Shown: one piece after another, positions 15,860 through 42,841 of the stretch
How positions within the stretch are numbered: position 1 is the first letter of the stretch
How the letters are laid out: each line of letters begins with the position of its first letter
NCBI GenBank assembly: GCA_043807135.1
Contig: JAZDGF010000001.1
Coordinates: 68,573-132,572 of the forward strand
DNA from: Candidatus Levyibacteriota bacterium
GTDB taxonomy: Bacteria; Patescibacteriota; Microgenomatia; Levybacterales; UBA12049
Length of the DNA stretch: 64,000 bases
Reading direction: 5' to 3'
Notes under the pieces: model-generated
Seen by the model: the letters and a program-made list of their open reading frames with translations, nothing else
What the model was told of the DNA's origin: nothing
Databases searched by the model: none
Translations under genes and position numbers: made by a program

Positions 15860-15892
15860 CAGAAAAACACGCGAAGGCGGGTTTTCTTATTA

Positions 15893-24649: not shown

Positions 24650-24722
24650 GTACCCGTAGTTCAATGGATAGAACACCTGGTTGCGGTCCAGGCGGTTGGA
24701 GGTTCGATTCCTCTCGGGTACG
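24650..24722 (+). tRNA. tRNA-Arg (anticodon read as GCG)
   Basis: GTACCCGTAGTTCAATGGATAGAACACCTGGTTGCGGTCCAGGCGGTTGGAGGTTCGATTCCTCTCGGGTACG. Acceptor GTACCCG/CGGGTAC, anticodon stem CCTGG/CCAGG, loop TTGCGGT so anticodon GCG, T-loop TTCGATT. GCG for Arg is unusual (ACG is normal), so confirm with tRNAscan-SE. Confidence 0.65.
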
Positions 24723-24727
24723 CAAAC

Positions 24728-24814
24728 GGTGGGATGCTGGAGCGGCTTAACAGGCTGGTTTCGAAAACCATGCGGGGCGAAAGTCCCACGGGGGTTCAAA
24801 TCCCTCTCCCACCG
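24728..24814 (+). tRNA. tRNA-Ser (anticodon CGA), type II
   Basis: GGTGGGATGCTGGAGCGGCTTAACAGGCTGGTTTCGAAAACCATGCGGGGCGAAAGTCCCACGGGGGTTCAAATCCCTCTCCCACCG. Acceptor GGTGGGA/TCCCACC, loop TTCGAAA, long variable arm. 5 nt downstream of the preceding tRNA. Confidence 0.8.
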
Positions 24815-24826
24815 CAATCTTTAGTT

Positions 24827-25243
24827 ATGAAATTTGAGTTTTCTGCAGGCGGAATTGTTTTTAGGAAAGATGATAATAAAACTTTTGTTCTTGTTTCAAA
24901 ACATTCCGAGCATCACGGATGGGTTTTTCCAAAAGGACTAATTGGAGATAGTATTAAAGGAGAAGATAGAAAAAGCACTGCCTTAAGAGAAGTTAAAGAA
25001 GAAACAGGTATTAATGCAAAAATTCTAAAATCTTTAAATCCTGTTTTCTACTTTTATATTTGGGAGGGAGAAAAAATTAAAAAAACCGTTTATTATTTTT
25101 TAATGGAATACTTATCAGGAGACTTTGAAGAAAGGGACTTTGAAATGGAAGAAGTTAAGTGGATTTTAAAAGAAAACGTTGAAAAAAGACTAACTTACAA
25201 ATCAGACAAAAAAGTTTGGCAAGAAGCAAAAGTTGATTTATAA
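24827..25243 (+). CDS. NUDIX hydrolase
   Basis: Nudix box GWVFPKGLIGDSIKGEDRKSTALREVKEETGI (GX5EX7REVXEEXGI). Probable start ATG 24827 (MKFEFSAGG); the ORF-track start at 24734 overlaps the tRNA. Confidence 0.85.
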   Translation: MKFEFSAGGIVFRKDDNKTFVLVSKHSEHHGWVFPKGLIGDSIKGEDRKSTALREVKEETGINAKILKSLNPVFYFYIWEGEKIKKTVYYFLMEYLSGDFEERDFEMEEVKWILKENVEKRLTYKSDKKVWQEAKVDL

Positions 25244-25254
25244 TATAAAGCCTT

Positions 25255-25341
25255 GGAGGGATCGCATAGTGGCCTAGTGCGCGCGCTTGGAAAGCGCGTA
25301 TGCCCGTAAGGGTATCGCGGGTTCAAATCCCGCTCCCTCCG
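25255..25341 (+). tRNA. tRNA-Ser (anticodon GGA), type II
   Basis: GGAGGGATCGCATAGTGGCCTAGTGCGCGCGCTTGGAAAGCGCGTATGCCCGTAAGGGTATCGCGGGTTCAAATCCCGCTCCCTCCG. Acceptor GGAGGGA/TCCCTCC, anticodon stem CGCGC/GCGCG, loop TTGGAAA, long variable arm. Confidence 0.8.
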
Positions 25342-25381
25342 CAACTTGACACGGAATATAAAATAATTCAAACTATACTTA

Positions 25382-27050: not shown

Positions 27051-30000
27051 TTAATACCCTTTCATAACTGCTTGAAGAAACTTCAAAGTCCCTACAAATC
27101 CTGCGTGGGCAAATGCAGCAATGCCTTCTTTTTTAAATTCTTCTCTAAAAAGATCTTTATATCTCGACTGTGCCATTCCTTCTATTTGATCAAATTCTTT
27201 TGCAGTGAAAAAAGAAGACTTTTTCTTGGTTGTTTTATATTTTCCATCTTTATCGAGATCTTCTTCTTCTATTCCGTAAGGAAAATTCTTGAAAAGAAAC
27301 TCAATTGCTGCAATGTCCATTGAGCTATACCAAGAATATCCCTCATCTTCTTGTCTATGTGACCAAAGATCTTTTGCAATAAAGTATGCAAAAGGCAGTC
27401 TGGCAAGTCTTTTCCTTACATGTTCTGGAGCTTCACCTTCTCCTTCAAATTCTCGATCAAAAGGATCTCTATATCCATTTTTAAATAATCCACGATTAGT
27501 CCCGTCAGCTTCAGGCTTCCCATCTTTGTCTGCATATAAATTAAAGCTTAATACTTCTTCATTAAACATATGCTCCTCAAGCTTTTTTTCACCAAATTTT
27601 AGTATGGGGTCTTTTTCCTCTCCGTTTTCGTCAAGCCCCGATTCATCCTTTTCATACCACCACTCCCTTACTTCATGCCCATAAAGAAATTCCGGAAGAT
27701 CAAATGTATATCTTGTATTTTTCCAAAACTCTTTAAATACCTTGTCTCTTTCTTCTTCAATTATCTGAAGTCTTCCATAAGCACCCTTTACAACCATCTT
27801 TGAATAATCTATCCCGTGATGTGTTGTAATGAATTCATAAAACTTGAATGCATTAAAGACATGATCGTCTATAAATTTTCTTTGTGCATTTCCTTTGAAG
27901 CTAAAAGCTCGTATATCTTCATCTATAGAAACATTATTCCCCTGTCCTCCTTGTAAAATTTCAAGCAAAGTTTTCTTAAAGCTTTTTTCACCATAAGCGT
28001 CTCCTTCGCTTACGGTCGTTGCTTCAAGGAAGTTTAAACCAATTCTTTTCAGTCCAAAAACGTTTTGAATATTTCCTACAGCACTTTTTGCATCTTTATA
28101 TTGCCCTTTTCTATACTCAGCTGTATTAATTAGCTTAGACCATCCGTCAAAACCAATTGCCTTTGTGTCATTTCTTGCTTGTATTCCCATCCACCTTACC
28201 ATAGTACTTACCCATTCAACAGCATACTTTGCTTCTTCTTTTGCATGCATTATTTCTTTATCTTCTAGCTCTTTAATCGAAAATCTTAAACATAATTCTT
28301 TATATTCTTTAGGATAATCTTTTTTTAGAATCTCAAATACTATTCTTTCATCAGATATTGCTGCAACCATAGCCCCGTTTACTAGTTCTTTTATTGCCTC
28401 TGGTTTTTTTGGATGGTTAAATATATTAAGATCATTTAACTCAAGCTCCCAATTTTTTAAACATTTTTCTGCAGCGTCTCTTATTTCTTTAGTCATCTCT
28501 GTTTCCCCAGAGATTTTTTCTAACTCTTCTACTCCTCCTGTCTTGCCAATAATATATCTGTAAAAATTAAGTGTTCCTTCTTCTCCAAGAACTTCTTCAA
28601 ACATATTTTTTTCCTCACCATCTGGCTTATAAGCTATTTCTGAAAGATGATAATAAGCAAGTAGTATTTTTTGTATATCTTTTCCTACAGAACCTTGTTT
28701 TTCTTGATGCTCAATCTTGTCTTTACCTATGATCCACTCTAATTCTTCTGCATTGTTTCCTGAAAGCATCAGTATTTTAAGAAGTCTATTCCTATTCTTT
28801 GTAAAAATATTGTTATAATGTATTTCAGCTAGTGCATTTGGGAGATCTTTTTCTATCCCCTCAACCATATGGTATTTAACATTAAAGTTATGCGACATTT
28901 GAAAAAGCCATACTTCAATCAATAACAGTTCTTTTAAATTCTCCTGCTTTTTTGGAAGATGGTAATCTCCTGTTGGAAGCATCCCCATTTTGGGATCAGG
29001 TTTTTCTACCTTGGTCATAAAGTATTTAGCATAAGCCATCATTTCTCCGAAGTTAATTGATCTATAGTTAGTAGTAACGCCAATATCAGAAAAAAGATTT
29101 ACTTCAGCATCTGAATGTAGATCATGATAATAAAGAATTCTACTTCTAATCCATGCTAAAAAATTCTCTGCTTTGAATTTTCCTTCTTTATCTAAAAGCT
29201 CATGTTTTCCGCCGGTTCTCCATTCCGGATCTTGAGCACTCATAATAAGTCTTGCCAAATCTTCTGCACTATTAAGAAGAGTATCGTATCCAAACTGTCC
29301 CTCAAATCTTTTAATAAAATCTCCAAGTGTGACATCTCGTATTCCTTTCTCCTCTCTTGTTTCATGCTCTGTTTCTAGCCCAGACAGTCTTAAAAATAAA
29401 TTCCTAGCACTTCTAAAATCCTCTTCTCTCTCAAAATTCAACTCTCCTTTTCTTGCTTTTGTTATAAGTCCTCTTGCGATTTCTAAATCTTTAAGAAACT
29501 CATCTTTTTTGCTTTCATCTTCTTCAAACTTATTTACATTAAGGCTTCCATTCTTTATTCCACTTTCTATATTTGCTATCATACTAGCCCAGGCAACATC
29601 AATTGCTAAAAATTTTGTGAAATCTTCTTGAGATTCTGCTTTTATTAATTCTTGTATCATTTCTTGATAAATTTTCTCAGAAGAATTATCCCTATTTTCT
29701 TTTTCTGACTTATCTATTGCATTTGTAAGATCATTTGTAAATTCCTCTGTTTCTTTTCCTCCATCAGGAAAAAATTTTTCAGCAGTACCTTTTGCTATAT
29801 TTCTTTGATGACGCTTTCGTTGATTTTCTTGCGCAATTTCTCCTAAGCCAAGACCTTCCAGCACATTTTTTACAGATTCCTCCGATATCGACACTTCTGT
29901 TGCTGCTGACGAACTTTTAGATGAATGTTCCGTAGGACGGTCATGTTCTCCAGGGGGACCTTCTTCTGACATAAAAATATCTCCTTCTCCTCCAAGTTTA

Positions 30001-30080
30001 GAAGCATTAGGTTTGCTTGTCAACGCTTCTTGACTATCTGTTTGGCCATTTGATGAAATATTATTTTCTTTTTCTGTCAT
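27051..30080 (-). CDS. large (1009 aa) acidic hypothetical protein with disordered Ser/Glu-rich N-terminus
   Basis: Single uninterrupted ORF, no TM segments, no recognisable catalytic motifs, ~100-aa low-complexity N-terminus. Lies inside the T4SS-like block on the opposite strand. Confidence 0.6.
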   Translation of the reverse strand: MTEKENNISSNGQTDSQEALTSKPNASKLGGEGDIFMSEEGPPGEHDRPTEHSSKSSSAATEVSISEESVKNVLEGLGLGEIAQENQRKRHQRNIAKGTAEKFFPDGGKETEEFTNDLTNAIDKSEKENRDNSSEKIYQEMIQELIKAESQEDFTKFLAIDVAWASMIANIESGIKNGSLNVNKFEEDESKKDEFLKDLEIARGLITKARKGELNFEREEDFRSARNLFLRLSGLETEHETREEKGIRDVTLGDFIKRFEGQFGYDTLLNSAEDLARLIMSAQDPEWRTGGKHELLDKEGKFKAENFLAWIRSRILYYHDLHSDAEVNLFSDIGVTTNYRSINFGEMMAYAKYFMTKVEKPDPKMGMLPTGDYHLPKKQENLKELLLIEVWLFQMSHNFNVKYHMVEGIEKDLPNALAEIHYNNIFTKNRNRLLKILMLSGNNAEELEWIIGKDKIEHQEKQGSVGKDIQKILLAYYHLSEIAYKPDGEEKNMFEEVLGEEGTLNFYRYIIGKTGGVEELEKISGETEMTKEIRDAAEKCLKNWELELNDLNIFNHPKKPEAIKELVNGAMVAAISDERIVFEILKKDYPKEYKELCLRFSIKELEDKEIMHAKEEAKYAVEWVSTMVRWMGIQARNDTKAIGFDGWSKLINTAEYRKGQYKDAKSAVGNIQNVFGLKRIGLNFLEATTVSEGDAYGEKSFKKTLLEILQGGQGNNVSIDEDIRAFSFKGNAQRKFIDDHVFNAFKFYEFITTHHGIDYSKMVVKGAYGRLQIIEEERDKVFKEFWKNTRYTFDLPEFLYGHEVREWWYEKDESGLDENGEEKDPILKFGEKKLEEHMFNEEVLSFNLYADKDGKPEADGTNRGLFKNGYRDPFDREFEGEGEAPEHVRKRLARLPFAYFIAKDLWSHRQEDEGYSWYSSMDIAAIEFLFKNFPYGIEEEDLDKDGKYKTTKKKSSFFTAKEFDQIEGMAQSRYKDLFREEFKKEGIAAFAHAGFVGTLKFLQAVMKGY

Positions 30081-30154
30081 GGCAAGAGAATTTTAAAAGA
30101 ATATAATATCGATAGCTTGATATTAACCCGACAAAAAACTTACAATATATCTAC

Positions 30155-31484
30155 CATGGATCCTAAATACTTTGAATCCCTGTATCCTAATACATCGCGC
30201 TTTAAAGAAATTGAGGAAATTTTAAGCTTTGTTAAAAACGGAAACTCTTGCCAACTTATTTCCTTTCCAGGAACCGGAAGGTCTAATATCCTGCAGCTTC
30301 TTGCCTATAATAGAGGCGTTAGAGAGAAACATCTTGGTGAAAAACAAAAATATGTCCATTTTGTTTACATGAATTTTTCAGAGGTAAGAAATCGCACTCT
30401 TCATGATGTAAATAAATTTATCTTTCTTTCTCTTATTGATTCTTTAACTGAACGAGAATTTTTAGAAGAGCACAAAAAGCTTAATAGGATTTTTAAAGAA
30501 TATTCAAAAACAAATGACGAATTAATTTTTTTTCAAGGATTAAAAGAAGCTCTTAATTATTTATCTATTGAAAAAAAACTAACAATAGTTCTTCTTTTTG
30601 ATAGATTTGAAGAATATCTTCCCGTACTCACTGATGAATTTTTTGCAAATCTTAGAATTTTAAGAAATAAGGCAAAATATCGTTTTTCTGCAGTATTCAC
30701 GCTTAACCGTCCCCTTGAAGATTTATTAAAGCCAACACTTTTTAATCAATTCTATGAATTTTTAGCAGGACATCTTGTTTATGTTTCTTTGTATGACAAG
30801 CCGGGAATGGATTTTAGAATTTCTTACTTTGAAAAAAAATATCAAAGGTCATTAGATAAAAAAACTTTAACTATCATTTTTTCTCTTACCGCAGGTCACG
30901 GAAAATTAACTCGCATTGCCCTTGAAACAGTTTTTGAGCAAAATATAAAAACCTTAACAAAAGAGGAAATTTTGCAATTATTACTAGCCAAAAAAACTAT
31001 TACCAGAGCTCTTTTTGAAATTTATAGCTTTCTTTCCAAAGAGGAAATAGAAAGACTTAATAAAAAGAGTAATGATAGCTTTTTAGAAAACATTGGCTTA
31101 TTTAAAGACAATAAAATCACAATTCTTCTTTTTGAAAAATATTTAGAGTTAAAAAAAACTTTTATCTCTACTGAAGATGAAAAAGATAAAATATTTATTG
31201 ATCATGAAACAAATGAAATTAAAAAAGGAAAAGAAAATCTTTCCGATAAATTAACTTCTTCAGAGTTTAAACTTTTAAAATATCTGTTGCAAAATCCTGA
31301 AAGAGTTATTGAGAGAAATGAGATTATTGAAGCTGTTTGGCAAAATACTGCCTCTTTTGCCGGCGTTTCTGATCAAGCAGTTGATCAACTTGTTCTTAGA
31401 ATTCGTAAGAAAATTGAAGACAATCCAAACAACCCCAACTACCTTTTAACGATTAAGGGAAGAGGATTTAAATTTATTCTCTAA
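30155..31484 (+). CDS. P-loop NTPase domain fused to C-terminal OmpR/PhoB-type winged-helix DNA-binding domain (putative transcriptional regulator)
   Basis: N-terminal Walker-A-like FPGTGRSNILQLL plus hhhhD Walker-B-like IVLLFDRFEE. C-terminal trans_reg_C-like segment LTSSEFKLLKYLLQNPERVIERNEIIEAVWQ...AVDQLVLRIRKKIE...LLTIKGRGFKF. Probable start ATG 30155 (MDPKYFESL). Confidence 0.65.
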
Positions 31485-31535
31485 CACTATCTTGGGTAGT
31501 TGCATTTTGTTAAATATTTCAGCTATGCTTAGATT

Positions 31536-32150
31536 GTGAGAAAAATAATTATATCGTTGGGAATTTTTTATATATTTTCTTTCCAACTTCCTCCTTTACA
31601 TCTAATTCATGCTCTCTTACCAGACAACGCAATGTGTGACAAAGATGAAGAATGTGCTTCCGGTGCCTGTGTAAAATACACACTTCCCGGAGAAGGGAAA
31701 ATTCGCAATACAGAAAAGCGCTGCGGTCCAATAGAAGATAAGGAAGCTAAGAAAGTTATTAACCCCGATGGTACAAAAACAGATTTGGAAGATGAGAAAA
31801 AAGTAAAGCAAGAACCCCTGCGTAATTCTCCTTGTAAGCAAGTGGGGGGTAAAGACAACGCTTATTTTAATTGTGATACTGGTTTAGGAATAACAATTAG
31901 TTCAAACCCAAAAGATTTTGTTAAAACTCTGTTTGGTGTAATTTTAAGTATCTCTGGAATGATAGCTCTCCTGCTTATAATATTTTCAGGGTATAGACTA
32001 ATCACCTCTCGGGGAAATCCAGAAAAAATTACAGATGCAAAAGACAGACTTACTTCTGCAGTTATCGGGCTCTTGTTTGTTATCTTTTCACTTGTTATAT
32101 TGCAAATTATAGGAGTTGATATTTTACATATTCCCGGATTAACAGAATGA
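31536..32150 (+). CDS. pilin-like protein (VirB2/TrbC-like candidate) with Cys-rich N-terminal domain
   Basis: Signal peptide, Cys-rich ~100-aa domain, then two hydrophobic helices flanking YRLITSRGNPEKITDAKDRLTSAV. This is a hairpin-TM topology shared with the next three genes. Confidence 0.5.
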   Translation: MRKIIISLGIFYIFSFQLPPLHLIHALLPDNAMCDKDEECASGACVKYTLPGEGKIRNTEKRCGPIEDKEAKKVINPDGTKTDLEDEKKVKQEPLRNSPCKQVGGKDNAYFNCDTGLGITISSNPKDFVKTLFGVILSISGMIALLLIIFSGYRLITSRGNPEKITDAKDRLTSAVIGLLFVIFSLVILQIIGVDILHIPGLTE

Positions 32151-32458
32151 AAGAATTAGTTCTTAAAATTAATGGGCAAGAAGTTCAAGCGCCTGAAGGA
32201 GTTCCAGTAGGAGGAGCTGATACAGGAAGTCAAATAATTTCCTTGAGCGTAACAGTTCTTTTTATAGTAGCAATTTTGCTTGCTCTTATATTTTTAATTT
32301 GGGGAGGAATTGATTGGACTACGTCTCAAGGAGATAAGAATAAAGTTCATGCAGCAAGAGAAAAGATAGTATATTCTATTATCGGACTTAGTGTAGTTTT
32401 ACTATCTTTTTTTATTGTTTCTCTAGTATCTGGTATTTTAGGAGTGAAACTTTTTTAA
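32147..32458 (+). CDS. pilin-like protein paralog (VirB2/TrbC-like candidate)
   Basis: TM - LIWGGIDWTTSQGDKNKVHAAREKI - TM. Shares the motif 'GG(I/V)xW(T/I)xSQGDK(N/S)KV..AR' with the 32518 paralog. 4-nt overlap with the upstream gene. Confidence 0.5.
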   Translation: MKELVLKINGQEVQAPEGVPVGGADTGSQIISLSVTVLFIVAILLALIFLIWGGIDWTTSQGDKNKVHAAREKIVYSIIGLSVVLLSFFIVSLVSGILGVKLF

Positions 32459-32517
32459 TATTTAATAAAGGAAGGACTTGACAAGCCAAAAAAAACATCG
32501 TACGATAAAGAAAAGTT

Positions 32518-32934
32518 ATGAAAAAATTATTTGCCATCCCCACTTCAGTTGCTCTCTATCTTACTAACGCTCCTTTAGCTTTTGCACAAGGAACACCAAT
32601 TGATCCCTGCGCAGCATCAGACAGTAAATTCAATGTTCTTTGCGAGCTAAATGCTGGACAGTTTGGTAAGCTTGTTGGAACTGCTATTACTGCCGTTTTT
32701 GTAATTGCTGTTATTATCGCTCTTATTTATTTAATTTACGGCGGTGTTCGCTGGATAATGTCCCAGGGAGATAAAAGCAAAGTCCAAGAAGCAAGAAGTC
32801 ATATTATAGCTGCTGTTTTAGGATTAATAATTGTTTTCCTTGCCTACTTTATAATAAATATTATTCTCGGGGTGTTCCTAGGAATAAGTATTGATCAAAT
32901 AGAACTTCCTAACCTCAAGGACGCAATAAAATAA
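32518..32934 (+). CDS. pilin-like protein paralog (VirB2/TrbC-like candidate)
   Basis: Signal peptide (AFAQG), Cys pair, TM - LIYGGVRWIMSQGDKSKVQEARSHI - TM. Confidence 0.5.
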   Translation: MKKLFAIPTSVALYLTNAPLAFAQGTPIDPCAASDSKFNVLCELNAGQFGKLVGTAITAVFVIAVIIALIYLIYGGVRWIMSQGDKSKVQEARSHIIAAVLGLIIVFLAYFIINIILGVFLGISIDQIELPNLKDAIK

Positions 32935-32996
32935 AACAACTTCTAAAGCAGTCTTGCTATCTACATTTTTTTCTGCTAAGTTAAGTTTATGGATGA

Positions 32997-33332
32997 TATT
33001 CCAAAAGGAGACCTATAGGAGGAGATTGGGGGGATTGTGTTCAGGAGGGAGTAGCAACTCTTTCTTGCATTCCTGTTGTTTTAGCAAGTGTTGTTAACTG
33101 GGCTTTAATATTTGCAGGCGTAGTTGCTTTAGTAATTGTAATTTTGTCTGGGATTAAATTTATAACCTCTAAGGGAGACAAAAAACAAGTTGCAAGTGCT
33201 AAGAGTAGTTTATCCTATGCAATACTAGGGTTAATTTTAATCTTTCTTTCCTTTTTTATAATAAGACTTATTGGTTATATTACAGGAGTTGATTGTATAA
33301 ACACTTTTGGCTTTAATAATTGTACTAGTTAA
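32997..33332 (+). CDS. pilin-like paralog, possibly pseudogene or non-canonical start
   Basis: The frame is open from 32997 and encodes ...GDWGDCVQEGVATLSCIPVVLASVVNWALIFAGVVALVIVILSGIKFITSKGDKKQVASAKSSLSYAILGLILIFLSFFII..., the same TM-motif-TM layout. There is no in-frame ATG; the ORF track starts it at TTG 33144, which lies inside TM1. A G6 homopolymer tract at 33028-33033 sits after an AGGAGG at 33018-33023. Confidence 0.35.
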   Translation, partial: YSKRRPIGGDWGDCVQEGVATLSCIPVVLASVVNWALIFAGVVALVIVILSGIKFITSKGDKKQVASAKSSLSYAILGLILIFLSFFIIRLIGYITGVDCINTFGFNNCTS

Positions 33333-34369
33333 TTATTTGCTCCTGCTTTTGCAACTCCTTGAGTAACAACTATAGACAAAAGAAATAATCCCGCAATTAA
33401 AAAAAGTATGTTTTTCCCATATTTTTTTTCTAGATCATCCGCTTCTTTATCCCCCATCACAATACCTATCATCTCCGTTGCATCTTCCTCGCTTAGTTCT
33501 TTCCCAAGAATAGCGTCAACAACCCCTTTATATTTTTCAGGATCGTTATTCTGAAAAAAATTCTCGAAATCAAAATTGCCATCCAATATTGCTTTTTTTT
33601 GGACATCATTCAACGGAGCATCTTTTAACCCTTCGCTTATTAGCTCTTTTCCTTTATTTACCTTTTCTTGGTCAATTTCACTTAAAAATTTATCCACATC
33701 TATTCCTAACTCTTTTAATCCTTGAAGGGCTAATTGCCCATGGTATTCACCTCTTTCCCCCTCAGCCTTTTTTGCACAAAATATTTTCGACAATTGCATC
33801 CTTTCCAATGAAGTATCTTCGCTTTTATCTTCTTTCTCTTTTATTTTCTCTCTCAAAGAAACTTCCTGACTATTAAAAAGATCATTTATAGTTTCCGGAG
33901 GACTTTCTATCTCTGTTGCAGATTCTTCTGGAAACTCAAAAGCATATATCCCTTTTTCTTTAAGAATAGCCTTATCCCCAGGAGTTACTTTATCAAGTTC
34001 TTTTTTCCACTCATTTAGAGAATAACTTTTACCGTCTAATTCAACTTTAATATTTTCAGATATCTCATCTAATGTTCCCTTCGCTTCTTCATCATCATAA
34101 AGATCTTCTAATGCCTCTACGTTAGCTCGTAATGCTTTTGAATTTTCTTCTACTCCTTTGCTCGCATCATATGTAAGAGCAAGCTCTCCTTTTTCTTTAT
34201 CAAGTTCCCCTCTATCTATTTTCTTACGAATTATTACTTCTGAGGCGCCAAAAAACTGTTGAGCTCTTTCTTTCCCTTTTTCTCTTAAACCCTCTCCTTT
34301 TGGAACTACACTCTTTTCAGGAATTTTAACTTCTGGAACTGGTGGTCCTTCTGCTGCTCCTTCACTCAT
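33329..34369 (-). CDS. acidic coiled-coil protein with C-terminal transmembrane anchor (tail-anchored)
   Basis: 346 aa, E/K-rich, predicted coiled coils, single C-terminal TM (ILFLIAGLFLLSIVVTQGVA). No catalytic motifs. Confidence 0.5.
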   Translation of the reverse strand: MSEGAAEGPPVPEVKIPEKSVVPKGEGLREKGKERAQQFFGASEVIIRKKIDRGELDKEKGELALTYDASKGVEENSKALRANVEALEDLYDDEEAKGTLDEISENIKVELDGKSYSLNEWKKELDKVTPGDKAILKEKGIYAFEFPEESATEIESPPETINDLFNSQEVSLREKIKEKEDKSEDTSLERMQLSKIFCAKKAEGERGEYHGQLALQGLKELGIDVDKFLSEIDQEKVNKGKELISEGLKDAPLNDVQKKAILDGNFDFENFFQNNDPEKYKGVVDAILGKELSEEDATEMIGIVMGDKEADDLEKKYGKNILFLIAGLFLLSIVVTQGVAKAGANN

Positions 34370-34423: not shown

Positions 34424-34759
34424 ATGTCCACTGGCAAAGCAGAAGCATTAGCAGCACAAATTAATCCTGAAGACAGGCCTATTGCAGTACGTGAATATCC
34501 AAAAGAAACCCCTGCTCCCAAGATTGAGATACCAACTCAAGCCCAGTCATCAGAACCAGTTAAGGCATCTGATATTAGAGAAGGTATGGTTAAAGGAGAT
34601 AAAGAAATAGAATTTAGCAAACATGCACAAAAGTTAGAGGCAGCAGATACTGATGCAAAAATTGAAGAAGTAAAAAGAGAACTAGAAGAACATTCTATAA
34701 GTCATAATCCTGTTTCTGGAGAAACTTCTTCTGATAATAATCCTTCTTTTTCCGAATAG
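34424..34759 (+). CDS. small acidic hypothetical protein
   Basis: 111-aa ORF, E/K/S-rich, no motifs; located within the T4SS-like block. Confidence 0.35.
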   Translation: MSTGKAEALAAQINPEDRPIAVREYPKETPAPKIEIPTQAQSSEPVKASDIREGMVKGDKEIEFSKHAQKLEAADTDAKIEEVKRELEEHSISHNPVSGETSSDNNPSFSE

Positions 34760-34856: not shown

Positions 34857-36098
34857 ATGGAAAATCATCCAATTCCTCAAGATATTACCGGCTTTCAGTT
34901 TAAGCTTATAGGGAATATGACTGTTAGGCAATTTGCTTATCTTGCAGCAGGAATTATTATTGCATGGATTTTTTATATTCTTCCTCTTTATATTTTAATT
35001 AAACTCCCCTTTTCTTTAATATTTGGTTTATCCGGAGTTGCGTTTGCTTTTTTACCAATTGAGGGAAGGCCAATGGATCTTATGATTAATAATTTTGTAA
35101 AAGCTTTATTTAATCCAACTCAATTTATATATGCTAAAACAGGCGGACATTTTTATTCCCCTACTCATGTCCCAGTCCCTCACATAGCAGCCCAAAAACA
35201 AACTGCATCTTCATTATCAGGTGATAATTTAAAAAAATTCTTAGATAATCTTCCTAAAAGACCTCAAAATAAACTAGATGAGAAAGAAATGGTTTTTTTT
35301 CAATCTCTTACAAATATTTCAAACCCTACAGCTTCCCCTACAGCATCAATTATACCAACCTATACAGCTCCACATATTTTTTCAGCTGCCCCTGTTAGAG
35401 CAAGTGATCTTAAAAAGCTAGAACCTGAAAAAGAAAAAAAGCCAGAGCCTATTGATTCTCAGGAAGAAGAAAATCAAAATATTCTTCTAGGTAAAGCGTC
35501 TGTTTTAGAACAAGAGCTTCAAAAAGCAAAACAAGAAGAAATGAAAAAAACTCAAGGCTCTGCTGATTATAATGCAGCTCATCAAAAAGTACTTGAACTT
35601 GAAACTCTTTTAAATGAAACTGTAGCTCAAAAACAAGGACTTGAAAACAAAATTCTATCACTTCAAAAAAAGCTTGATATGCAGGGGAAAAAAGTTTATT
35701 CCCCTTCTTTAGCAGTCCCTGAAAAAGAACCTACTAAGAATATTCGAAGTATTCCAAAAGGCATGGGTAAAAGCATTGGTATTCCAAATGCTCCCGAATA
35801 TCCAAATCTAGTTACTGGAATTATTAAAGATCCAAGATCAAATCCTTTACCAAATATTTTAGTTGAAATAAAAGATTATGAAGGAAATCCAGTTCGGGCT
35901 TTTAAAACAAATGCCTTAGGTCAATTTGCATCGGCAACCCCTCTTGTTAACGGAACGTATACAATTGAATTTGAAGATCCTAATGGACAAAACAAGTTTG
36001 ATATTATACAGTTTAGTGTCAAAGGGGAAATAATACTTCCTGTTGAAGTTATTTCCGTTGATACAAGAGAAGAATTAAGGAGGACTCTTTTTAACTAA
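34857..36098 (+). CDS. membrane protein with PrgI/VirB3-like N-terminal two-TM module, coiled-coil region and C-terminal beta-sandwich (carboxypeptidase-regulatory-like) domain
   Basis: N-terminus ITGFQFKLIGNMTVRQFAYLAAGIIIAWIFYIL...LIFGLSGVAFAFLPIEGRPMDLMINNFVKA resembles PrgI/VirB3-family proteins that precede VirB4 in Gram-positive T4SS. C-terminus GIIKDPRSNPLPNILVEIKDYEGNPVRAFKTNALGQFAS...GTYTIEFE resembles a CarbopepD_reg/transthyretin-like fold. Confidence 0.45.
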   Translation: MENHPIPQDITGFQFKLIGNMTVRQFAYLAAGIIIAWIFYILPLYILIKLPFSLIFGLSGVAFAFLPIEGRPMDLMINNFVKALFNPTQFIYAKTGGHFYSPTHVPVPHIAAQKQTASSLSGDNLKKFLDNLPKRPQNKLDEKEMVFFQSLTNISNPTASPTASIIPTYTAPHIFSAAPVRASDLKKLEPEKEKKPEPIDSQEEENQNILLGKASVLEQELQKAKQEEMKKTQGSADYNAAHQKVLELETLLNETVAQKQGLENKILSLQKKLDMQGKKVYSPSLAVPEKEPTKNIRSIPKGMGKSIGIPNAPEYPNLVTGIIKDPRSNPLPNILVEIKDYEGNPVRAFKTNALGQFASATPLVNGTYTIEFEDPNGQNKFDIIQFSVKGEIILPVEVISVDTREELRRTLFN

Positions 36099-36100
36099 AT

Positions 36101-36766
36101 ATGAGTAAAGCTGCCCAAAGAATTCATGCAACAACTCAAAAATTTACAGAGATTGAAGAAATCTCTGAAGACATTGTCATTTTTCAAGGCGGAAATGCTA
36201 CTTTAGTAATTGAAGTAACCGCAACAAATTTTGCTCTTCTTTCAAGAGAGGAACAAGATACTAAAATCTATTCTTACGCAGCGCTTCTAAATTCACTTTC
36301 TTTTGCAATTCAAATAATTGTTAGAAGTAAAAAATTAGACATTACAGCATATTTAAAACTGCTCGATTCTCAAGCAAAGGCAACCCAGAATGAACTTCTC
36401 AAAAATCAAATAAGCTTGTATCGAGATTTTGTCCAGGAATTAGTTAAGGTAAATACCGTACTTGATAAAAAATTTTATATTTGTATTCCCTACTCTTATC
36501 TTGAAAAAGGAGTTGGTGCTACCGCAAGTTCGGTAAGCAAGGGCGGGCCAAAAGACAATTTTACAGAACAAGCAAAAGCTGCGCTTCATTCAAAAGCAGA
36601 AAGTATCTTGTCTCAAGTTGCAAGATTAAATCTTAGAGCAAAAGTTTTGGAAAAAGAAGAGCTTGTAAAGCTTTACTATGAAACTTACAACGATCAATCA
36701 ATTGAAACAAATCAAATAACAGATAATGTTAGAACACCAATTGTCAGAGGAGAGGAGAAAAAATAA
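36101..36766 (+). CDS. hypothetical soluble protein directly preceding virB4-like gene
   Basis: 221-aa ORF with no TM or motifs; its stop overlaps the VirB4-like start (ATAATG) suggesting translational coupling. Confidence 0.45.
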   Translation: MSKAAQRIHATTQKFTEIEEISEDIVIFQGGNATLVIEVTATNFALLSREEQDTKIYSYAALLNSLSFAIQIIVRSKKLDITAYLKLLDSQAKATQNELLKNQISLYRDFVQELVKVNTVLDKKFYICIPYSYLEKGVGATASSVSKGGPKDNFTEQAKAALHSKAESILSQVARLNLRAKVLEKEELVKLYYETYNDQSIETNQITDNVRTPIVRGEEKK

Positions 36767-38757
36767 TGTTTTTTGGAAAAAAGAAAAAAGATAACAAACA
36801 AACAATAGCACCTACTCAAAAAACGCCGACCTCAAAAGAGTTAGCAAAGGTGGAAAAAGGTATGGTTTCTTTATCAGATGTAATTGCACCTTCTTCTGTT
36901 GAAGTGGACTTTCATTATGTTCGAGTAGGAGAAAGGTATTACAAAACATTTTTTGTTGTTGGCTATCCACGCTATGTCTCCCCAAATTGGCTACAGCCTT
37001 TAATTGATTTTGATCATTCAATGAATGTGTCCATGTTTGCCTATCCCACCTCTTCTCCGGATGTTCTATCTGACTTAAGAAGAAAAATTGCTGAGATGGA
37101 AGCAACAATTTCTTCTCAGATTGAAGAAGGAAAAGTTGTTGATGCAAAAGTAAGAGCATCTCTTGATGATGCCCTGTCAATTCAAGAACAATTAGCAAAG
37201 GGGGTTGAGCGGTTTTTTCAATTCAGCTTATACATTACCCTTATCTCAGATCATCCAAAAGAACTTGAAGAGGCATCAAAAAGACTTTCGTCTACTCTTG
37301 GTTCAATCATGATGATTGCCAAAACTGCAACCCTACAAATGGAAGACGGATTTAAATCAAGTATTCCTATGGGTCAAGATAAATTATTTATTACCAGAAA
37401 CATGGATACAACTTCTCTTGCTTCTACATTTCCTTTTACATCAGCAACTCTTGCTCAGGAAAAAGGAGTTATGTATGGAATAAATGAGCAAAATGGATCC
37501 CTTGTTATCTTTGATCGCTTTTCCCTTGAAAATGCCAATGAGGTTGTTTTGGGAAAGTCAGGATCAGGAAAATCATACTTAATAAAGCTTGAGGTTTTAA
37601 GACAATTCATGTTTGGAACCGAAGTTATTATTATTGACCCTGAAGGAGAGTATGGACAAATTGCAAAAACTATGGGAGGAGAAGAAGTTGCCTTTACTCC
37701 TTCTAATCCAATTAAAATAAATCCGTTTGATTTATCAGGGCTTTACGAGGAAGGTGAAAATGAGCTTGGTCTTAAAATTCTTTCCTTGCATGGACTTTTA
37801 AGAATCGTTATGGGAGATTTGGATGCTGCCCATGACGCAATTTTAGATCGAGCACTGGTTGAAACCTACAGACAAAAAGGAATAACTACTGATCCGGCAA
37901 CACAGAAAAAAACTCCTCCTTTAATGGAAGATCTTTATAAAGTTTTATTGGGAATGGAAGATTCGCAAGCAGGAGAACTTGCGCTTCGCCTTGAAAAGTT
38001 TATTAAAGGAAGCTTGAACGGCATTTTTAATCAACAATCAAACTTTGATATAAAAAACGCTTTAACAATCTTTAATATTAAAGCCTTAGAGGAAGAACTA
38101 AGACCAGTTGCAATGCATATTATTCTTGATTTTGTTTGGACTAGGGTTAGAAAAACCCTTAAGAAGAGACTTTTAATACTAGATGAAGCTTGGTATATTA
38201 TGAAATATCCTGATTCAGCTTCCTTTGTATATGGGATTGCCAAAAGATCAAGAAAATACTATCTTGCCTTAACAACCGCAACCCAGGATGCTCAGGACTT
38301 CTTATCAACTGATTATGGAAGGGCAATTCTTTCCAACTCCTCTATCCAGATGCTTTTAAAACAAAGCCCAACGGAAATTGATTTGATCTCAAAAGTTTTC
38401 TATCTTTCCGAAGGAGAAAAAGAGCTACTTCTTTCAGCAGACATTGGAGAGGGGTTATTTTTTGCCGGACAAAGTCATGTTGCCATGAAGGTAATTGCAG
38501 CACCTTTTGAGCACACTTTAATTACGTCTAATCCTCAAGAAATTTTAAACATAAGGGAACAAGAGGAAACGGAAATAAAAGCTCAGGAAACAACTCAAGA
38601 TATGCCAATACAGCCAATTGCTCCTCCTATAGATCAAAAACCACAACCGCCATTGGAAGATAACATTTCAGAAACAAAACCACCTACTCCGGTAAATCTA
38701 GAGAGTGCCCCTCCAATAAATGATGCTCAAAGCACAATTCCGAATTCAAATACATAA
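36766..38757 (+). CDS. virB4: VirB4/TraE/PrgJ-family type IV secretion ATPase
   Basis: Walker A VLGKSGSGKSY, Walker B RLLILDEAWYIM, VirB4-like N-terminal membrane-associated domain, ~660 aa like Gram-positive VirB4 homologues (TcpF/PrgJ/TrsE). Confidence 0.85.
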   Translation: MFFGKKKKDNKQTIAPTQKTPTSKELAKVEKGMVSLSDVIAPSSVEVDFHYVRVGERYYKTFFVVGYPRYVSPNWLQPLIDFDHSMNVSMFAYPTSSPDVLSDLRRKIAEMEATISSQIEEGKVVDAKVRASLDDALSIQEQLAKGVERFFQFSLYITLISDHPKELEEASKRLSSTLGSIMMIAKTATLQMEDGFKSSIPMGQDKLFITRNMDTTSLASTFPFTSATLAQEKGVMYGINEQNGSLVIFDRFSLENANEVVLGKSGSGKSYLIKLEVLRQFMFGTEVIIIDPEGEYGQIAKTMGGEEVAFTPSNPIKINPFDLSGLYEEGENELGLKILSLHGLLRIVMGDLDAAHDAILDRALVETYRQKGITTDPATQKKTPPLMEDLYKVLLGMEDSQAGELALRLEKFIKGSLNGIFNQQSNFDIKNALTIFNIKALEEELRPVAMHIILDFVWTRVRKTLKKRLLILDEAWYIMKYPDSASFVYGIAKRSRKYYLALTTATQDAQDFLSTDYGRAILSNSSIQMLLKQSPTEIDLISKVFYLSEGEKELLLSADIGEGLFFAGQSHVAMKVIAAPFEHTLITSNPQEILNIREQEETEIKAQETTQDMPIQPIAPPIDQKPQPPLEDNISETKPPTPVNLESAPPINDAQSTIPNSNT

Positions 38758-38764
38758 ATAATCT

Positions 38765-41700
38765 ATGAATGGAAACAATAATCCTCTAGCAAAAATTTTA
38801 GCAATTTTAATTACCACTTATCCCGATCACGCCGAAGAGTTAGGAAGAATAACAAATCTTTTTCTAAAAGATCCTGAGAAGGCAAAGCTTGAATTATATA
38901 AATGGGAAAAATCTTCTAACATAAAACTTCCTGATCATATAACGCTTTTGATAGAACAAGAGTTACAACAGGGAAAAGAAGTCTCCTCTCGGGACAATAA
39001 TGAAAATCAAAAAAAGAAGAACAGCAAGGATTCAAAAAATCAACCATACAATGACGGTGCTTATATAGCTAAAGACCCAACCCCTGCAGAAAGATATAGA
39101 AAGGCCATAGTAAATAAATTTATTAGAAAACAATCAAATGAAAGAACAAGCAAAGATTACCTTGAAGAAAAAACGGTCTCTGAAAAAGATGTTTTTGACA
39201 AATGGTACGAGGAGAATACAAGGCTTGGAAAAACAAAATTTTCCGAAGAAGAAGTTAAGGCATATAAAGAAAGTGAAGAGTTTAAAAAAAAATTAATTTC
39301 AATAGTAGATGAAAAATATAAAAAAAAATTCGAAGGAGAAATTGCAGCATTTATCATTGCTGAAAAATCTAGGATATATGAAAATCCAAATGAAGATCCT
39401 GTAATAAAAGAGTATAAAAAAATTCTAGCAGAAGCTAATAAAAAATCTCCTGAAGAAGCAGAAAAAATAAAAAAAGAAGCCTCAAAAATCCTTCATGAAG
39501 AATTTACTCAAAAAACACTTTCCTACTCTAAGGACCTCCCAGAAATAAAAGAATACTTAATTAAAGTAAATAAAGAAATCCTAGTAGCTCCTTCGATAAT
39601 CATGCCTTCTTCTGTGTTTGAAGAAGAATCTTATTCATCAGAACCATTTGAAAATGATAACAATAATGAAGAAGTTTTCCCTTATTTTCAGGGAAATCAA
39701 TCTGAGCCCGAAAATGAACCTGATAAATCTGGGAATCAATCCTCGTCAAACAGGCCCAGCAGACCCAACAGAAGAACAATTAGAGAAATTAATCCGGAAA
39801 AAAATGTTGCTAGAAGAGCGGCTGGAAGAACGAGGGGGAAAGGTCAAAAAGCGCTTTTGCGATTTGGAAGAGTAGCTGTCCAAGTTGTTTCAAAAATCCC
39901 CCCGCATGTCTGGATTGTAATTATTGCACTTATTATTCTTGTTATTCTTATTTTTATGCTTTTTGGACTTTTCGACGATCCATTAGAAAACGGTGGTGTA
40001 TATAATATATCAAAATCTGCAGATAAAGAGGCTGTGGCCAATCCTCCTGACGATCTTAACTATCTTACGGCATTATCTACTCCTCAAGATATTACATACA
40101 CAATTACTGTTTCTTATTCTGGAAAAGCCCAATCTGTTACGGTTACAGATCCCATTCCAGAAAACGCAATCTTAGTTTCTGCTGATAACGATGCTGAGTT
40201 TTTAGATGAAAATGGCAATATAATAACTGATAAAAACCTTGCAAGAACAGTTACTTGGACTATCACTCCTGAAGCATCATCAGGAGGAAATCTGTCTAAT
40301 CCAGCTAATACGACATTGGGAGATTGGTTAAATAAAAAGCTTTCAGAAAATCCACTTCGCTTAGGGCTAAGCGGCATGGGACCAACGATTGCAAATTTAT
40401 CAGCAAAATACAATGTCCCAATTGAGCTCGCGCTGGGACAATTTGCCTTAGAAACCCAATGGTATTCAGATAAAGGAGTTACTGTTACCCAAGGATCAAA
40501 TAATCCAGGCAATATTTTATGCAATCCTGATCTTAGGCTTGGAGCAATTGGAAATGATATTGTTGACCGCCTGGGAACCCATTATTGTAGATTTTCCTCT
40601 CTTGAGAGCGGACTTGAAGCATATTTTAAACATTTAGATAGTTCTACTTATCGAAGTGCAGTTGATGAGTTTATTAAAACAAGCAATCCTAGACCCGTTA
40701 TCCATATTTACTATTCATCTTCAAATGACCCAAGTAGCGGAAACGAAAACAGCTATGTAAATACTGTAAACAATATTACAAAAGATTTAAGAGACGCTGC
40801 TGTAATAGATGGTGTAAATCTTGCTGTTTCCTCTTCTTTCAATGAGCAGTATAATAACGCTACTTCTAGTTTTACCCTAGCTTTAAGACCCAAACCTGGT
40901 GCGAAAGATACATATATTATTAACCAGGCATTTGCAAGTGGAGCTGGAATATCAATATGCACAGGAGGATCAACAGTTGTTCTTGACCCCGGACATCCAA
41001 GCGAAGTTGGTATTGGAGGGGCGGGAAATGGAGTTAATGAAGTTGAAAAAGTCTTAGAGATTGCAAATATTATAAAACCAAAGTTAGAAGCAAAAGGATA
41101 CAGTGTTATCTTAACCAGAAATAATAATACAACTAGGGTTACAAATAAAGCGAGGGCGGAAACCGCAAATAGTGCAAATGCTTCTTTAATGTTCAGAATT
41201 CATACTGACGCTGGAAGAACTGACAGGGGAGTTGCGTATTATTATCCAGCAGAACAAGGAACAGTTGATGGAGTTACAGGCCCAAGCAGTGAAGTTATTG
41301 AAAAAAGCAAACAAGCAGCGACTGCCATCCTGAACACAACCAGGGATACTCTCATTGGAAACGATATGCCACTTTTTAGAGGAGGCCTTCTAACTGATGC
41401 TGATACTGCGGTAGGAAAGAAAAATGGGGGAGCTTTAGCGGGGTCTATTTATTCATCGGTTCCAACTGTGCTTGTGGAACTGGGAAGCCTCACCAACGCT
41501 ACCGATGCCACCTGGCTTAAATCAACTGATAATTTAAATAAATATGCTGATTCATTAGCGTCTGGAATTTCCAATTTTGCAGGGACCTCTACCTGCGCCG
41601 ATTCTAATAACGATTTTCCCACTAATTATGTTGGCACTGGAGGGTATACTCCTCTTCAGGGTCAATGGGAAGGAACTACTCAAAAGCTTACTGACTATCT

Positions 41701-42145
41701 TCTTGCAAATAACCCTTCTCCCAAATTTACTGTTTCAACATTAACTCTTGCGGGATATTATATAAAATATGCTGCAGAAGTAAATCTTCGAGCAGACATT
41801 CTTTGGGCACAAATGATTCATGAAACAGGTTTTGGAAAATATGGAGGAGATGTTTTGCCAAGCCAAAATAACTTTGCTGGTGTTGGAGCAACCGGAAATG
41901 GAGAAGAAGGAATATCGTTTGTCACCGCAGAAGCTGGTGTAAAAGCACAAATTGCCCACATGGCAGCTTACGTATACACAACTGATATTACTTCATGGAC
42001 TAATTCCCAAACAGATCCCCGCTATGACTTAATAATCCCCAGAGGAATCGCAAAGTCCTTAAATAATCTTGACGGAAGATGGGCTATTCCCGGAAACGGA
42101 TATGGAACAACTATTGAAAATTATGTAAGAATTATTAATCAATAA
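38765..42145 (+). CDS. membrane-anchored multidomain peptidoglycan hydrolase (glucosaminidase-like + Amidase_3 + glucosaminidase-like); T4SS-associated lytic enzyme candidate
   Basis: K/E-rich ~370-aa N-region, single TM (VWIVIIALIILVILIFMLF). Glucosaminidase-like segment (LGQFALETQWYSDKG...NNPGNI). Amidase_3 motifs (VVLDPGHPSEVGIGGAGNG...LTRNN...ANSANASLMFRIHTDAG...PTVLVELGSLTN). Second glucosaminidase-like segment (ADILWAQMIHETGFGKYGG...NNFAGVGATG). Confidence 0.75.
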   Translation: MNGNNNPLAKILAILITTYPDHAEELGRITNLFLKDPEKAKLELYKWEKSSNIKLPDHITLLIEQELQQGKEVSSRDNNENQKKKNSKDSKNQPYNDGAYIAKDPTPAERYRKAIVNKFIRKQSNERTSKDYLEEKTVSEKDVFDKWYEENTRLGKTKFSEEEVKAYKESEEFKKKLISIVDEKYKKKFEGEIAAFIIAEKSRIYENPNEDPVIKEYKKILAEANKKSPEEAEKIKKEASKILHEEFTQKTLSYSKDLPEIKEYLIKVNKEILVAPSIIMPSSVFEEESYSSEPFENDNNNEEVFPYFQGNQSEPENEPDKSGNQSSSNRPSRPNRRTIREINPEKNVARRAAGRTRGKGQKALLRFGRVAVQVVSKIPPHVWIVIIALIILVILIFMLFGLFDDPLENGGVYNISKSADKEAVANPPDDLNYLTALSTPQDITYTITVSYSGKAQSVTVTDPIPENAILVSADNDAEFLDENGNIITDKNLARTVTWTITPEASSGGNLSNPANTTLGDWLNKKLSENPLRLGLSGMGPTIANLSAKYNVPIELALGQFALETQWYSDKGVTVTQGSNNPGNILCNPDLRLGAIGNDIVDRLGTHYCRFSSLESGLEAYFKHLDSSTYRSAVDEFIKTSNPRPVIHIYYSSSNDPSSGNENSYVNTVNNITKDLRDAAVIDGVNLAVSSSFNEQYNNATSSFTLALRPKPGAKDTYIINQAFASGAGISICTGGSTVVLDPGHPSEVGIGGAGNGVNEVEKVLEIANIIKPKLEAKGYSVILTRNNNTTRVTNKARAETANSANASLMFRIHTDAGRTDRGVAYYYPAEQGTVDGVTGPSSEVIEKSKQAATAILNTTRDTLIGNDMPLFRGGLLTDADTAVGKKNGGALAGSIYSSVPTVLVELGSLTNATDATWLKSTDNLNKYADSLASGISNFAGTSTCADSNNDFPTNYVGTGGYTPLQGQWEGTTQKLTDYLLANNPSPKFTVSTLTLAGYYIKYAAEVNLRADILWAQMIHETGFGKYGGDVLPSQNNFAGVGATGNGEEGISFVTAEAGVKAQIAHMAAYVYTTDITSWTNSQTDPRYDLIIPRGIAKSLNNLDGRWAIPGNGYGTTIENYVRIINQ

Positions 42146-42184
42146 TGTTGTCTATGTTTTTTATCTTTGTTATTCTAAATATTA

Positions 42185-42841
42185 ATGTTTAAAAAAACAC
42201 TTTTGCTATTTTTTTCACTAACAGTTATTTTTATTGTGTTTAAAAATAACGCCCTATTCTATGGAGGGGATTCTTATGCCGCAACTAACCAGGGCTCTCA
42301 AACAGCAAGTGAATGTGTAATCGTTAAGGTAGGAAATCCAACAGCAGATCCTGACACTTCAAAATGCAACACCTTTTTGGGCACTGCTTCAAGTTATGCT
42401 CTAAAAGCTATTGAGCTCGCGAGAAGCCAAAAAGGGAAAATGTATTTATGGGCTGCTTGTCATGGTGATTTATCAAAAAGCCCACCCCCCGGGGGATGTG
42501 CAAATTATGATTGTTCGGGTCTTACAAGATGGACTTGGTATTGGGCAACTGATGGAAAAGTCAACGATCTTGACCAAACGGCTACTAACTGGGATGCGGG
42601 ATATGGTAATTTTGAGAAGTTTGACAAGAGTCAGGTTGCCCTTATTCAACCAGGAGATCTTGTTTATTTTGGGCCATCAAAAGCCGACGCATCCCATACA
42701 GGAATCTACGCTGGCCTAGGTGACTGTGGCGCAAACGACTGCTTTATTCATGCTCCTGGAACAGGAAAAGCTGTTACAGAATATAGTTTATCTAAAAGAA
42801 CAAATTTTATTGGTTTTCTTAGGCCTATTGTTGTAGAATAA
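42185..42841 (+). CDS. secreted NlpC/P60-family peptidoglycan endopeptidase
   Basis: Signal peptide; catalytic Cys region KMYLWAACHG...GGCANYDCSGLTRWTW and His region HTGIYAGLG...FIHAP, consistent with NlpC/P60 (Cys-His-His). Confidence 0.75.
   Translation: MFKKTLLLFFSLTVIFIVFKNNALFYGGDSYAATNQGSQTASECVIVKVGNPTADPDTSKCNTFLGTASSYALKAIELARSQKGKMYLWAACHGDLSKSPPPGGCANYDCSGLTRWTWYWATDGKVNDLDQTATNWDAGYGNFEKFDKSQVALIQPGDLVYFGPSKADASHTGIYAGLGDCGANDCFIHAPGTGKAVTEYSLSKRTNFIGFLRPIVVE

Follow-up and report, generated by a model that had tools for sequence, protein, structure and literature searches.

A 64,000-nt stretch of contig JAZDGF010000001.1 (assembly GCA_043807135.1) from Candidatus Levyibacteriota, referred to below as the window, carries a tandem array of four small forward-strand genes at 31536-33332, here called c1 to c4. 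A preliminary description made from the letters of the DNA had reported four adjacent genes at this place for proteins with two transmembrane (TM) segments and a loop between them. The open reading frames (ORFs) were found at these positions, and all four loop peptides quoted in it are present verbatim. Each of the four proteins has two long hydrophobic segments with a charged loop between them. The common loop motif is real: the similarity is far above chance, and each protein matches the Pfam family PF18895 (T4SS_pilin, for the pilins of type IV secretion systems, T4SS) with E-values from 3e-11 to 2.7e-8. The best explanation overall is that the array represents a conserved set of four VirB2-like T4SS pilins, in which c4 is an ordinary orthologue with a one-base break after its ATG at 32989. 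We put the probability of this reading at about 0.85.

All four products scored above the gathering threshold of PF18895 (26.6 bits; scores in Table 1), and the matches ran from model positions 6-11 to positions 70-71 of 71. PF18895 was the sole Pfam family above its cut-off for c1 to c4. When the 64 kb window was scanned with the family hidden Markov model, exactly four such ORFs were detected. With a profile built from the four window paralogs, 77,953 cluster representatives were retrieved at E ≤ 1e-3, of which 14,196 also passed E ≤ 1e-10. The loop is short and basic and follows the family signature S-x-G-[D/N]-x-x-K-[V/I]-x-x-A-[K/R]. When the paralogs and their orthologues are taken together, the columns A-L, G, S-x-G, A, G and I are invariant. 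The identity of c1 to the other paralogs is 20-33%, and values among the window copies are 27-36%. The genes c1 and c2 are closely coupled, with the ATG of c2 overlapping the c1 stop codon by 4 nt (ATGA). The body of c4 consists of an N-terminal Cys pair, two helices joined by an SKGDKKQV loop, and a C-terminal Cys pair. In total, c1 has six Cys residues, c3 two and c4 four, and c2 has none. It had been stated earlier that two of the four proteins carry signal peptides and Cys pairs. As to the first part, c1 and c3 have signal-peptide-like N-termini as judged from the sequence by their basic start, hydrophobic stretch and A-x-A; Cys pairs, however, occur in three proteins. The extra Cys-rich region ascribed to the first gene was also recovered as an N-terminal extension of c1.

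The preliminary description had further regarded the proteins as pilin-like, related to VirB2/TrbC and encoded by a genome of the candidate phyla radiation (CPR). This agrees with the presence of PF18895 in all four proteins, with weak matches to PF04956 (TrbC/VirB2) among the orthologues of c4 and with the PrgI, TrsD-like and VirB4 genes nearby. In an alignment of c4 orthologues with 18 sequences (the window copy and 17 orthologues), PF18895 was matched by 18 of 18 members and PF04956 weakly by 12 of 18, with a best E-value of 1.4e-5. A remote homology to the classical VirB2/TrbC pilins, short of membership in PF04956, is thereby suggested. The products of c1 to c4 also match the pilin-like protein Mbov_0395 / MMCAP2_0565 of the Mycoplasma integrative and conjugative element (NCBIfam NF045849, 80 residues) over nearly its full length (E = 3e-9 to 3.6e-4). 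Mbov_0395 is likewise a small hairpin protein whose gene lies beside a VirB4 gene. The scores of 20-36 bits lie below the 40-bit cut-off; c1 to c4 are therefore not members of this equivalog, and the relationship is distant.

The four genes are distinct old orthogroups and not recent copies. The order regulator-c1-c2-c3-c4 is identical at three relatives' loci (L001, L003 and L005), where c1 encodes 189-196 amino acids (aa), c2 104 aa, c3 133-136 aa and c4 112 aa. At L006, the contig begins inside the array and shows c2 with 104 aa, c3 with 138 aa and c4 with 110 aa. In L001, L004 and L006, the array is followed by a gene on the reverse strand and then by further genes of the cluster; PrgI is reached in all three, and the TraC-like and VirB4 genes are reached on the L001 contig. 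The highest identities between orthologues were measured for c4 with 81-87%, at a ratio of non-synonymous to synonymous substitution rates (dN/dS) of 0.07-0.09, followed by c2 with 78-81% (dN/dS 0.10-0.16), c3 with 59-74% (0.11-0.19) and c1 with 47-61% (0.37-0.38). Among more distant loci, L012, L013, L016 and L017 contain four to six pilin ORFs each, and the first gene bears a long N-terminal extension in L012, L013 and L016. This pattern would be easier to reconcile with four fixed roles than with a pool of antigenic variants.

For c4, the ORF track gave only a 62-aa ORF with a TTG start (33144-33332). Frame 0 is open already from 32997, and the part gained in this way encodes a Cys pair together with the first hydrophobic helix (…PIGGDWGDCVQEGVATLSCIPVVLASVVNWALIFAGVVALVIVILSGIKF…). 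None of the start codons ATG, GTG and TTG occurs in this frame from the stop codon at 32994-32996 up to 33144, and the observation that the fourth copy lacks an in-frame ATG and yet retains TM1 was correct. Overlooked at that stage was the orthologous start codon of c4, an ATG at 32989-32991 that lies out of frame. From this ATG the sequence reads ATG GAT GAT ATT CCA AAA GGA GAC CTA TAG (MDDIPKGDL and stop), and the remainder of the gene continues in the -1 frame with CCT ATA GGA GGA GAT TGG GGG GAT TGT (PIGGDWGDC). For the stretch that joins the end of c3 to the start of c4, the DNA of the window was aligned with that of seven relatives' loci (four distinct sequences). In this alignment, the ATG and the TTTCTGnTAAnTTnAnnTT before it are invariant, and the window shows a single 1-base gap (GGAGA^CCT) at about 33011. 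Because the window is one base short at this point, the ATG frame ends at the TAG of 33016-33018. Thus, c4 looks start-less owing to a base missing just after a conserved ATG and not owing to the run of six G residues (G6) further downstream. At E ≤ 1e-3, 34 homologues of c4 were collected. The four closest are 81-86% identical, have 110-113 aa and start with ME[V/N]IPI…DW or MRNPRGGDLDW, and more distant ones start with MDW.

A second assembly across the 5' end of c4 was sought. Exact look-ups of the products of c2, c3, the 346-aa gene following the array and the 62-aa c4 ORF found none, and scans of genome and metagenome contigs returned relatives of at most 87% identity and no same-species contig over this site. 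The sole second assembly found (L018, Logan SRR10598176) is 100% identical, spans 31202-32319 and ends inside c2. The NCBI numbering implies a coding sequence at c4 (V1697_00515 / MFH1186635.1) between V1697_00510 and V1697_00520, from c3 to the next gene; none of seven candidate c4 translations was present in the protein collection, and the c4 homology search gave no match of 100%. The break is best explained either by an error in the consensus or assembly or by a mutation of very recent date.

The region upstream of c4 has features of its own. No Shine-Dalgarno sequence was seen at 32954-32991 in the window, nor at the corresponding place in L001, L004, L006, L011, L012 and L013. In the four close relatives, an invariant TGnTAAnTT, resembling an extended -10 element, ends 6 nt 5' of the ATG, and TTGAC(T) precedes this element by about 18 nt; a -10-like hexamer is also seen in L012 and L013, 6-8 nt 5' of the c4 ATG. 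The -35 element is degraded to TTGCTA in the window. This arrangement suggests that c4 may be transcribed as a leaderless mRNA.

Several other explanations were considered for the state of c4. The preliminary description had pointed to an AGGAGG at 33017-33022 and to the G6 run at 33028-33033, and both positions were borne out; their proposed meaning was not. A role of AGGAGG as a ribosome-binding site is not supported, since it forms the GGA GGA (Gly-Gly) codons of a Gly-rich stretch common to the relatives (GGAGGAGGA, GGAGGTGGAGGC). That the G6 run acts as a slipped-strand phase-variation switch of c4 is extremely unlikely. It encodes part of the conserved DW-x-x-C segment, relatives have G4 in its place, and the frame break is located 5' of it. 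A longer G run, for instance by a +1 change, cannot rescue c4, since the ATG frame has already stopped at the TAG upstream of the run. Runs of this length also occur at chance frequency in the 64 kb window, with four found against approximately 3.5 expected under a first-order model and one of them inside c1 (31844-31849). The loss of one G (G5) would indeed place a TTG at 33026 in the frame of the body (MGDCVQEG…), but this option is not a conserved feature, and the TTG follows AGGAGG after 3 nt, which is too short for a normal ribosome-binding site. Expression despite the break has somewhat more in its favour, yet is still improbable. It would require either a -1 slip on A_AAA_G after the ATG (MDDIPK-RRPIGGDWGDC…), the only plausible -1 slippery site before the TAG, where tRNA-Lys re-pairs perfectly one base back on AAAA, or a weak start at ATA 33015. 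This ATA, a candidate for the non-ATG start that the preliminary description had also raised, follows AAAGGAG (33004-33010) at a distance of 4 nt and shares bases with the TAG; from the stop at 32994 up to the conserved DW, no other near-cognate start codon is in frame. The body of c4 is wholly intact and under purifying selection as in the relatives. With dS values of 1.2-1.5 to the nearest relative, however, an intact body shows only that the lesion is recent relative to the divergence. All seven aligned loci are in frame at the site, so there is no conserved recoding site, and in bacteria initiation at ATA is very inefficient. Nor was a stimulatory RNA structure detected at a suitable distance: the fold z-score of 32989-33100 against shuffled sequences was -0.53, and the nearest hairpin (33042-33067) is located 35 nt downstream. 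The sequence accordingly falls short of a programmed -1 frameshift site, as A_AAA_G is present but has no structure 5-9 nt downstream and is not conserved. The earlier idea of a decaying paralog, i.e. a plain old pseudogene, has very little probability. It can draw on the lack of a usable in-frame start codon and on the loss of a neighbouring cluster gene in this genome. Against it, the fourth ORF, whose absence from relatives had been named as the mark of a pseudogene, has intact orthologues in the same gene order, and together with c2 it is the best conserved of the four orthogroups. In the comparison with relatives, which covered 102 codons (105 when counted from ATA 33015), c4 showed neither a stop codon nor a further indel. 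Long-term decay is excluded because all 14 invariant residues of the orthogroup are kept and because dN/dS towards the four relatives equals that among intact orthologues (0.06-0.12, at dS of about 1.2-1.5).

It was also considered that the proteins are not T4SS pilins at all, but other small two-helix membrane proteins such as holins, or pilins of the type IV pilus (PilA-type). A helical hairpin is indeed a generic shape. The AlphaFold model of c4, based on the 18-sequence alignment, has helices at 22-57 and 62-96 with a 4-residue loop and a mean predicted local distance difference test score (pLDDT) of 71.6. The best TM-score in a Foldseek search of the PDB was obtained for the conjugation pilus of Aeropyrum pernix (8dfu; 0.54 on the query and 0.68 on the target), with an E-value of 9.3, and there was no significant pilin match. 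Still, this alternative is close to negligible, given that PF18895 alone exceeds its cut-off for all four proteins and that the genes are conserved beside PrgI and VirB4. Membership of a holin family, which had been put forward as evidence against the pilin assignment, was seen for none of c1 to c4 in Pfam or PHROGs; in PHROGs, c1, c2 and c4 had no match at all and c3 matched only a family without known function (E = 9e-4). As to PilA-type pilins, N_methyl was not matched in Pfam at E ≤ 0.1, there are two hydrophobic helices per protein, and the N-termini of c1 to c4 show no visible prepilin motif of the form G/F-T-L-x-E (G-F-T-L-x-E). Some points do weigh against the assignment as VirB2-like pilins with an ordinary c4. 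Neither c4 nor c1 found a significant fold match in the PDB with Foldseek, and the hairpin is a very simple fold. When PDB sequences were searched with a profile, only noise came back (E ≥ 0.2) and thus no sequence-related solved structure. The window copy of c4 scored 11.5 bits (E = 0.36) on PF04956, below the gathering threshold of 27.9 bits, and no recognisable VirB6 or VirD4 was found in the window. The position of the missing base is ambiguous, as an extra A in the A4 run at 33003-33006 restores the frame equally. A 704-aa gene of the relatives' cluster is missing here (see below), and together with the break in c4 this could mean that the system is eroding in this genome. The role in a pilus or in secretion would, for this lineage, follow from homology and gene neighbourhood.

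Table 1. Features at and around the pilin gene array (positions in the window; aa, amino acids).
Feature	Position	Strand	Description and evidence
c1	31536-32150	+	204 aa, GTG start; PF18895 43.7 bits
c1, parts of the product			signal-peptide-like N-terminus; Cys-rich N-terminal extension ~27-98; conserved P-C...C-DTGLG module; two-helix hairpin 125-191
c1, extension	31614-31829		residues ~27-98
c2	32147-32458	+	103 aa; without signal peptide and without Cys; PF18895 34.9 bits
c3	32518-32934	+	138 aa; signal-peptide-like N-terminus (…APLAFA/QG), one Cys pair; PF18895 34.2 bits
c4, true 5' end	32989-33018	+	ATG 32989-32991 and 8 codons (MDDIPKGDL), TAG 33016-33018; frame 1
c4, body	33015-33332	+	frame 0 (IGGDWGDC…NNCTS); PF18895 37.5 bits
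A_AAA_G	33003-33007	+	in the ATG frame, within CCA AAA GGA; sole plausible -1 slippery site before TAG
G6 run	33028-33033	+	codons TGG GGG GAT (Trp-Gly-Asp), downstream of the frame break; TGGGGA (G4) in relatives
sigma-70-like promoter, 5' of c3	32478-32506	+	TTGACA, 17-nt spacer, TACGAT; 10/12 consensus matches, consensus match only
upstream regulator	30117-31484	+	C-terminal OmpR-type winged-helix; PF00486 Trans_reg_C, E = 6e-21
acidic protein gene	33329-34369	-	346 aa; 30% identical to 420-aa gene at the same L001 position
PrgI (VirB3-like) membrane protein	34857-36098	+	with C-terminal CarboxypepD_reg-like domain; PF12666, 38.4 bits; NCBI 'PrgI family protein' MFH1186638.1
TrsD/TraC-like protein	36101-36766	+	resembles VirB4 N-terminal part; NF045975 VirB4_plasma (N-terminal region) E = 2e-10; NF041427 TrsD E = 8e-4
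VirB4-type ATPase (motor)	36766-38757	+	NF045971 conju_CD1110, 391.9 bits against a cut-off of 325; PF19044
cell-wall hydrolases	38765-42841	+	1126-aa amidase + glucosaminidase (PF01520, PF01832); NlpC/P60 protein (PF00877)
dnaN	43303-44412		
dnaA	44541-45917		

The neighbourhood is a chromosomal, origin-proximal T4SS of the monoderm kind in Candidatus Levyibacteriota (Microgenomatia, Patescibacteria/CPR). In the relatives, the gene at the position of the TrsD/TraC-like protein matches PF26593 (TraC-like). No relaxase or VirD4 was detected among the 37 large window ORFs scanned against Pfam, and the remaining genes of the window are housekeeping genes. The regulator directly 5' of the pilin genes has 455 aa and no receiver domain; L001 has a 439-aa Trans_reg_C gene at its position. 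It is a candidate for a dedicated regulator of the array.

Two further proteins flank the array, and their positions are kept in the relatives. On the reverse strand, 27051-30080 encodes a hydrophilic, Glu/Lys-rich protein of 1009 aa that is 33% identical to a 965-aa L001 gene product and has no family match. The 346-aa acidic protein on the other side has a single C-terminal hydrophobic anchor (segment 317-343) and no match in Pfam. It may be that both belong to the system as components not yet recognised. In the close relatives (L001 7659-10189, L004 and L006), a hydrophilic gene of 704-707 aa and a gene of 130 aa lie between the gene on the reverse strand and PrgI. The window contains only a 111-aa ORF there (34424-34759, forward strand). 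Its start corresponds to the promoter and ATG orthologous to those of the 704-aa gene, and over its last ~46 residues it shares 65% identity with the C-terminal end of the relatives' 130-aa protein. From these sequences it looks as if a deletion of about 2.3 kb fused the 704-aa and 130-aa genes in the window, which would add a second lesion to the cluster besides the break in c4.

The N-terminal extension of c1 was compared among 20 c1-type homologues. Their C-terminal ~105 residues are well conserved, with P-C…C-DTGLG, the hairpin and the end IPGF. The N-terminal part is hypervariable and not alignable, usually Cys-rich and often with CC-x-G-x-x-C. Its length ranges from none to ~250 aa in alignment A4 and reaches ~560-580 aa in L012 and L013. 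The model of the window protein shows a β-hairpin at 43-65 (pLDDT 74-85) followed by a disordered Lys/Glu-rich linker. The best PDB match, a spider knottin toxin (1axh) over 38 columns with a probability of 0.98, was not significant (E = 0.16). In the solved conjugative pili F and T, the termini lie outside and the loop lines the lumen. The variable N-terminal module of c1 would therefore be surface-exposed, and the earlier suggestion that the extra domain acts as a tip or adhesin is plausible. More speculatively, the four pilins might be fixed parts of one heteromeric T4SS filament, in which c1 displays a fast-evolving, disulfide-knotted module for host recognition and c2 to c4 build the shaft. 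We consider this possible but doubtful. To our knowledge, every conjugative pilus with a solved structure is built from only one VirB2-type subunit, and such a filament would therefore be a new architecture, if true.

The array is of an already described kind and a textbook instance of the arrangement reported in a survey of 3,035 Patescibacteria genomes with profiles including PF18895 and PF04956 (PMC12102498, Microb Genom 2025). In that survey, 441 VirB2 arrays of 2-11 pilin genes were found in 383 assemblies, most commonly in Microgenomatia and Saccharimonadia, with a mean identity of 25% and a maximum of 54% between the copies. They are associated with VirB4, TrsD and PrgI, are often near dnaA/dnaN and usually have no relaxase. 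A T4SS of the monoderm class is normally without VirB2 (PMC12102498). The window, from a host of the class Microgenomatia, likewise has four tandem PF18895 genes of 20-33% identity, adjoined by PrgI, TrsD and VirB4 near dnaA/dnaN and with no relaxase nearby. An array being defined by at least two PF18895/PF04956 genes in tandem or one gene apart, near virB4, the window presents four genes with VirB4 at 36766-38757. Nothing essential differs; the window array has the one-base break in c4 and lacks the 704-aa gene. T4SS genes including a pilin array were reported to be essential for epibiotic growth in the one strain tested, Ca. Southlakia epibionticum ML1 of the Saccharimonadia, and it was proposed that the pilin copies vary to adapt to different hosts (PMC12102498). 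In contrast to this idea, the window copies are stable orthogroups under purifying selection and would be a better fit to four fixed roles.

The diderm pilins VirB2/TrbC/TraA (e.g. F TraA) and the archaeal 8dfu are small two-helix hairpins with a short basic loop, the shape also predicted for the window proteins, and both groups have VirB3/VirB4 neighbours; the cleavable leader of this group is probably also present in some window copies. They differ in that the window has four different paralogs instead of one major pilin, in a CPR host whose T4SS is otherwise monoderm-like. By analogy with solved VirB2/TraA pili, the subunits would insert into the membrane with the basic loop facing the cytoplasm, c1 and c3 with the help of cleavable leaders and c2 and c4 as hairpins. 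The VirB4/TrsD/PrgI machine might then extract the subunits and stack them into a pilus or an envelope-spanning tube, while the adjacent hydrolases would open the wall. In such a filament, the lumen would be lined by the loop, and the Cys-bearing termini, including the variable extension of c1, would be outside. As has been proposed for Patescibacteria (PMC12102498), the filament or tube could be used for contact with a host cell or for exchange with it.

The locus is of little importance beyond correct annotation. At NCBI, c1 is 100% identical to MFH1186632.1, 'MAG: pilin [Candidatus Levyibacteriota bacterium]', and c2 (MFH1186633.1) and c3 (MFH1186634.1) are both named 'hypothetical protein'; c1, c2, c3, PrgI and VirB4 are identical to proteins of one metagenome-assembled genome of Candidatus Levyibacteriota. 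The entries for c2 and c3 should read 'T4SS pilin (PF18895)', and c4 should be annotated as a frameshifted orthologue from the ATG at 32989. The four stable orthogroups are in addition a small argument for distinct structural roles over antigenic variants in such arrays.

Fused 'poly-pilins' appear to exist beside the gene arrays. The top matches of the four-paralog profile (proteins P0123-P0270) are single polypeptides with 2-17 tandem pilin hairpin repeats, such as P0123 (552 aa) with a signal peptide and then six repeats, P0131 with 395 aa and P0127 (1775 aa) with 17 matched stretches. Two poly-repeat sequences that were read were continuous.

Elsewhere in the window, the ORFs 47532-47981 and 47908-49212 overlap by 74 nt on the forward strand, and the second has an O-antigen ligase (Wzy_C) domain. 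The overlap may reflect a further frame break, or simply an alternative start that lies early. A tmRNA gene (15498-15860, forward strand) with the tag peptide ADYSYSRGPKLAYAFA and a tRNA cluster with tRNA-Arg and two tRNA-Ser (24650-25342, forward strand) are ordinary chromosomal features.

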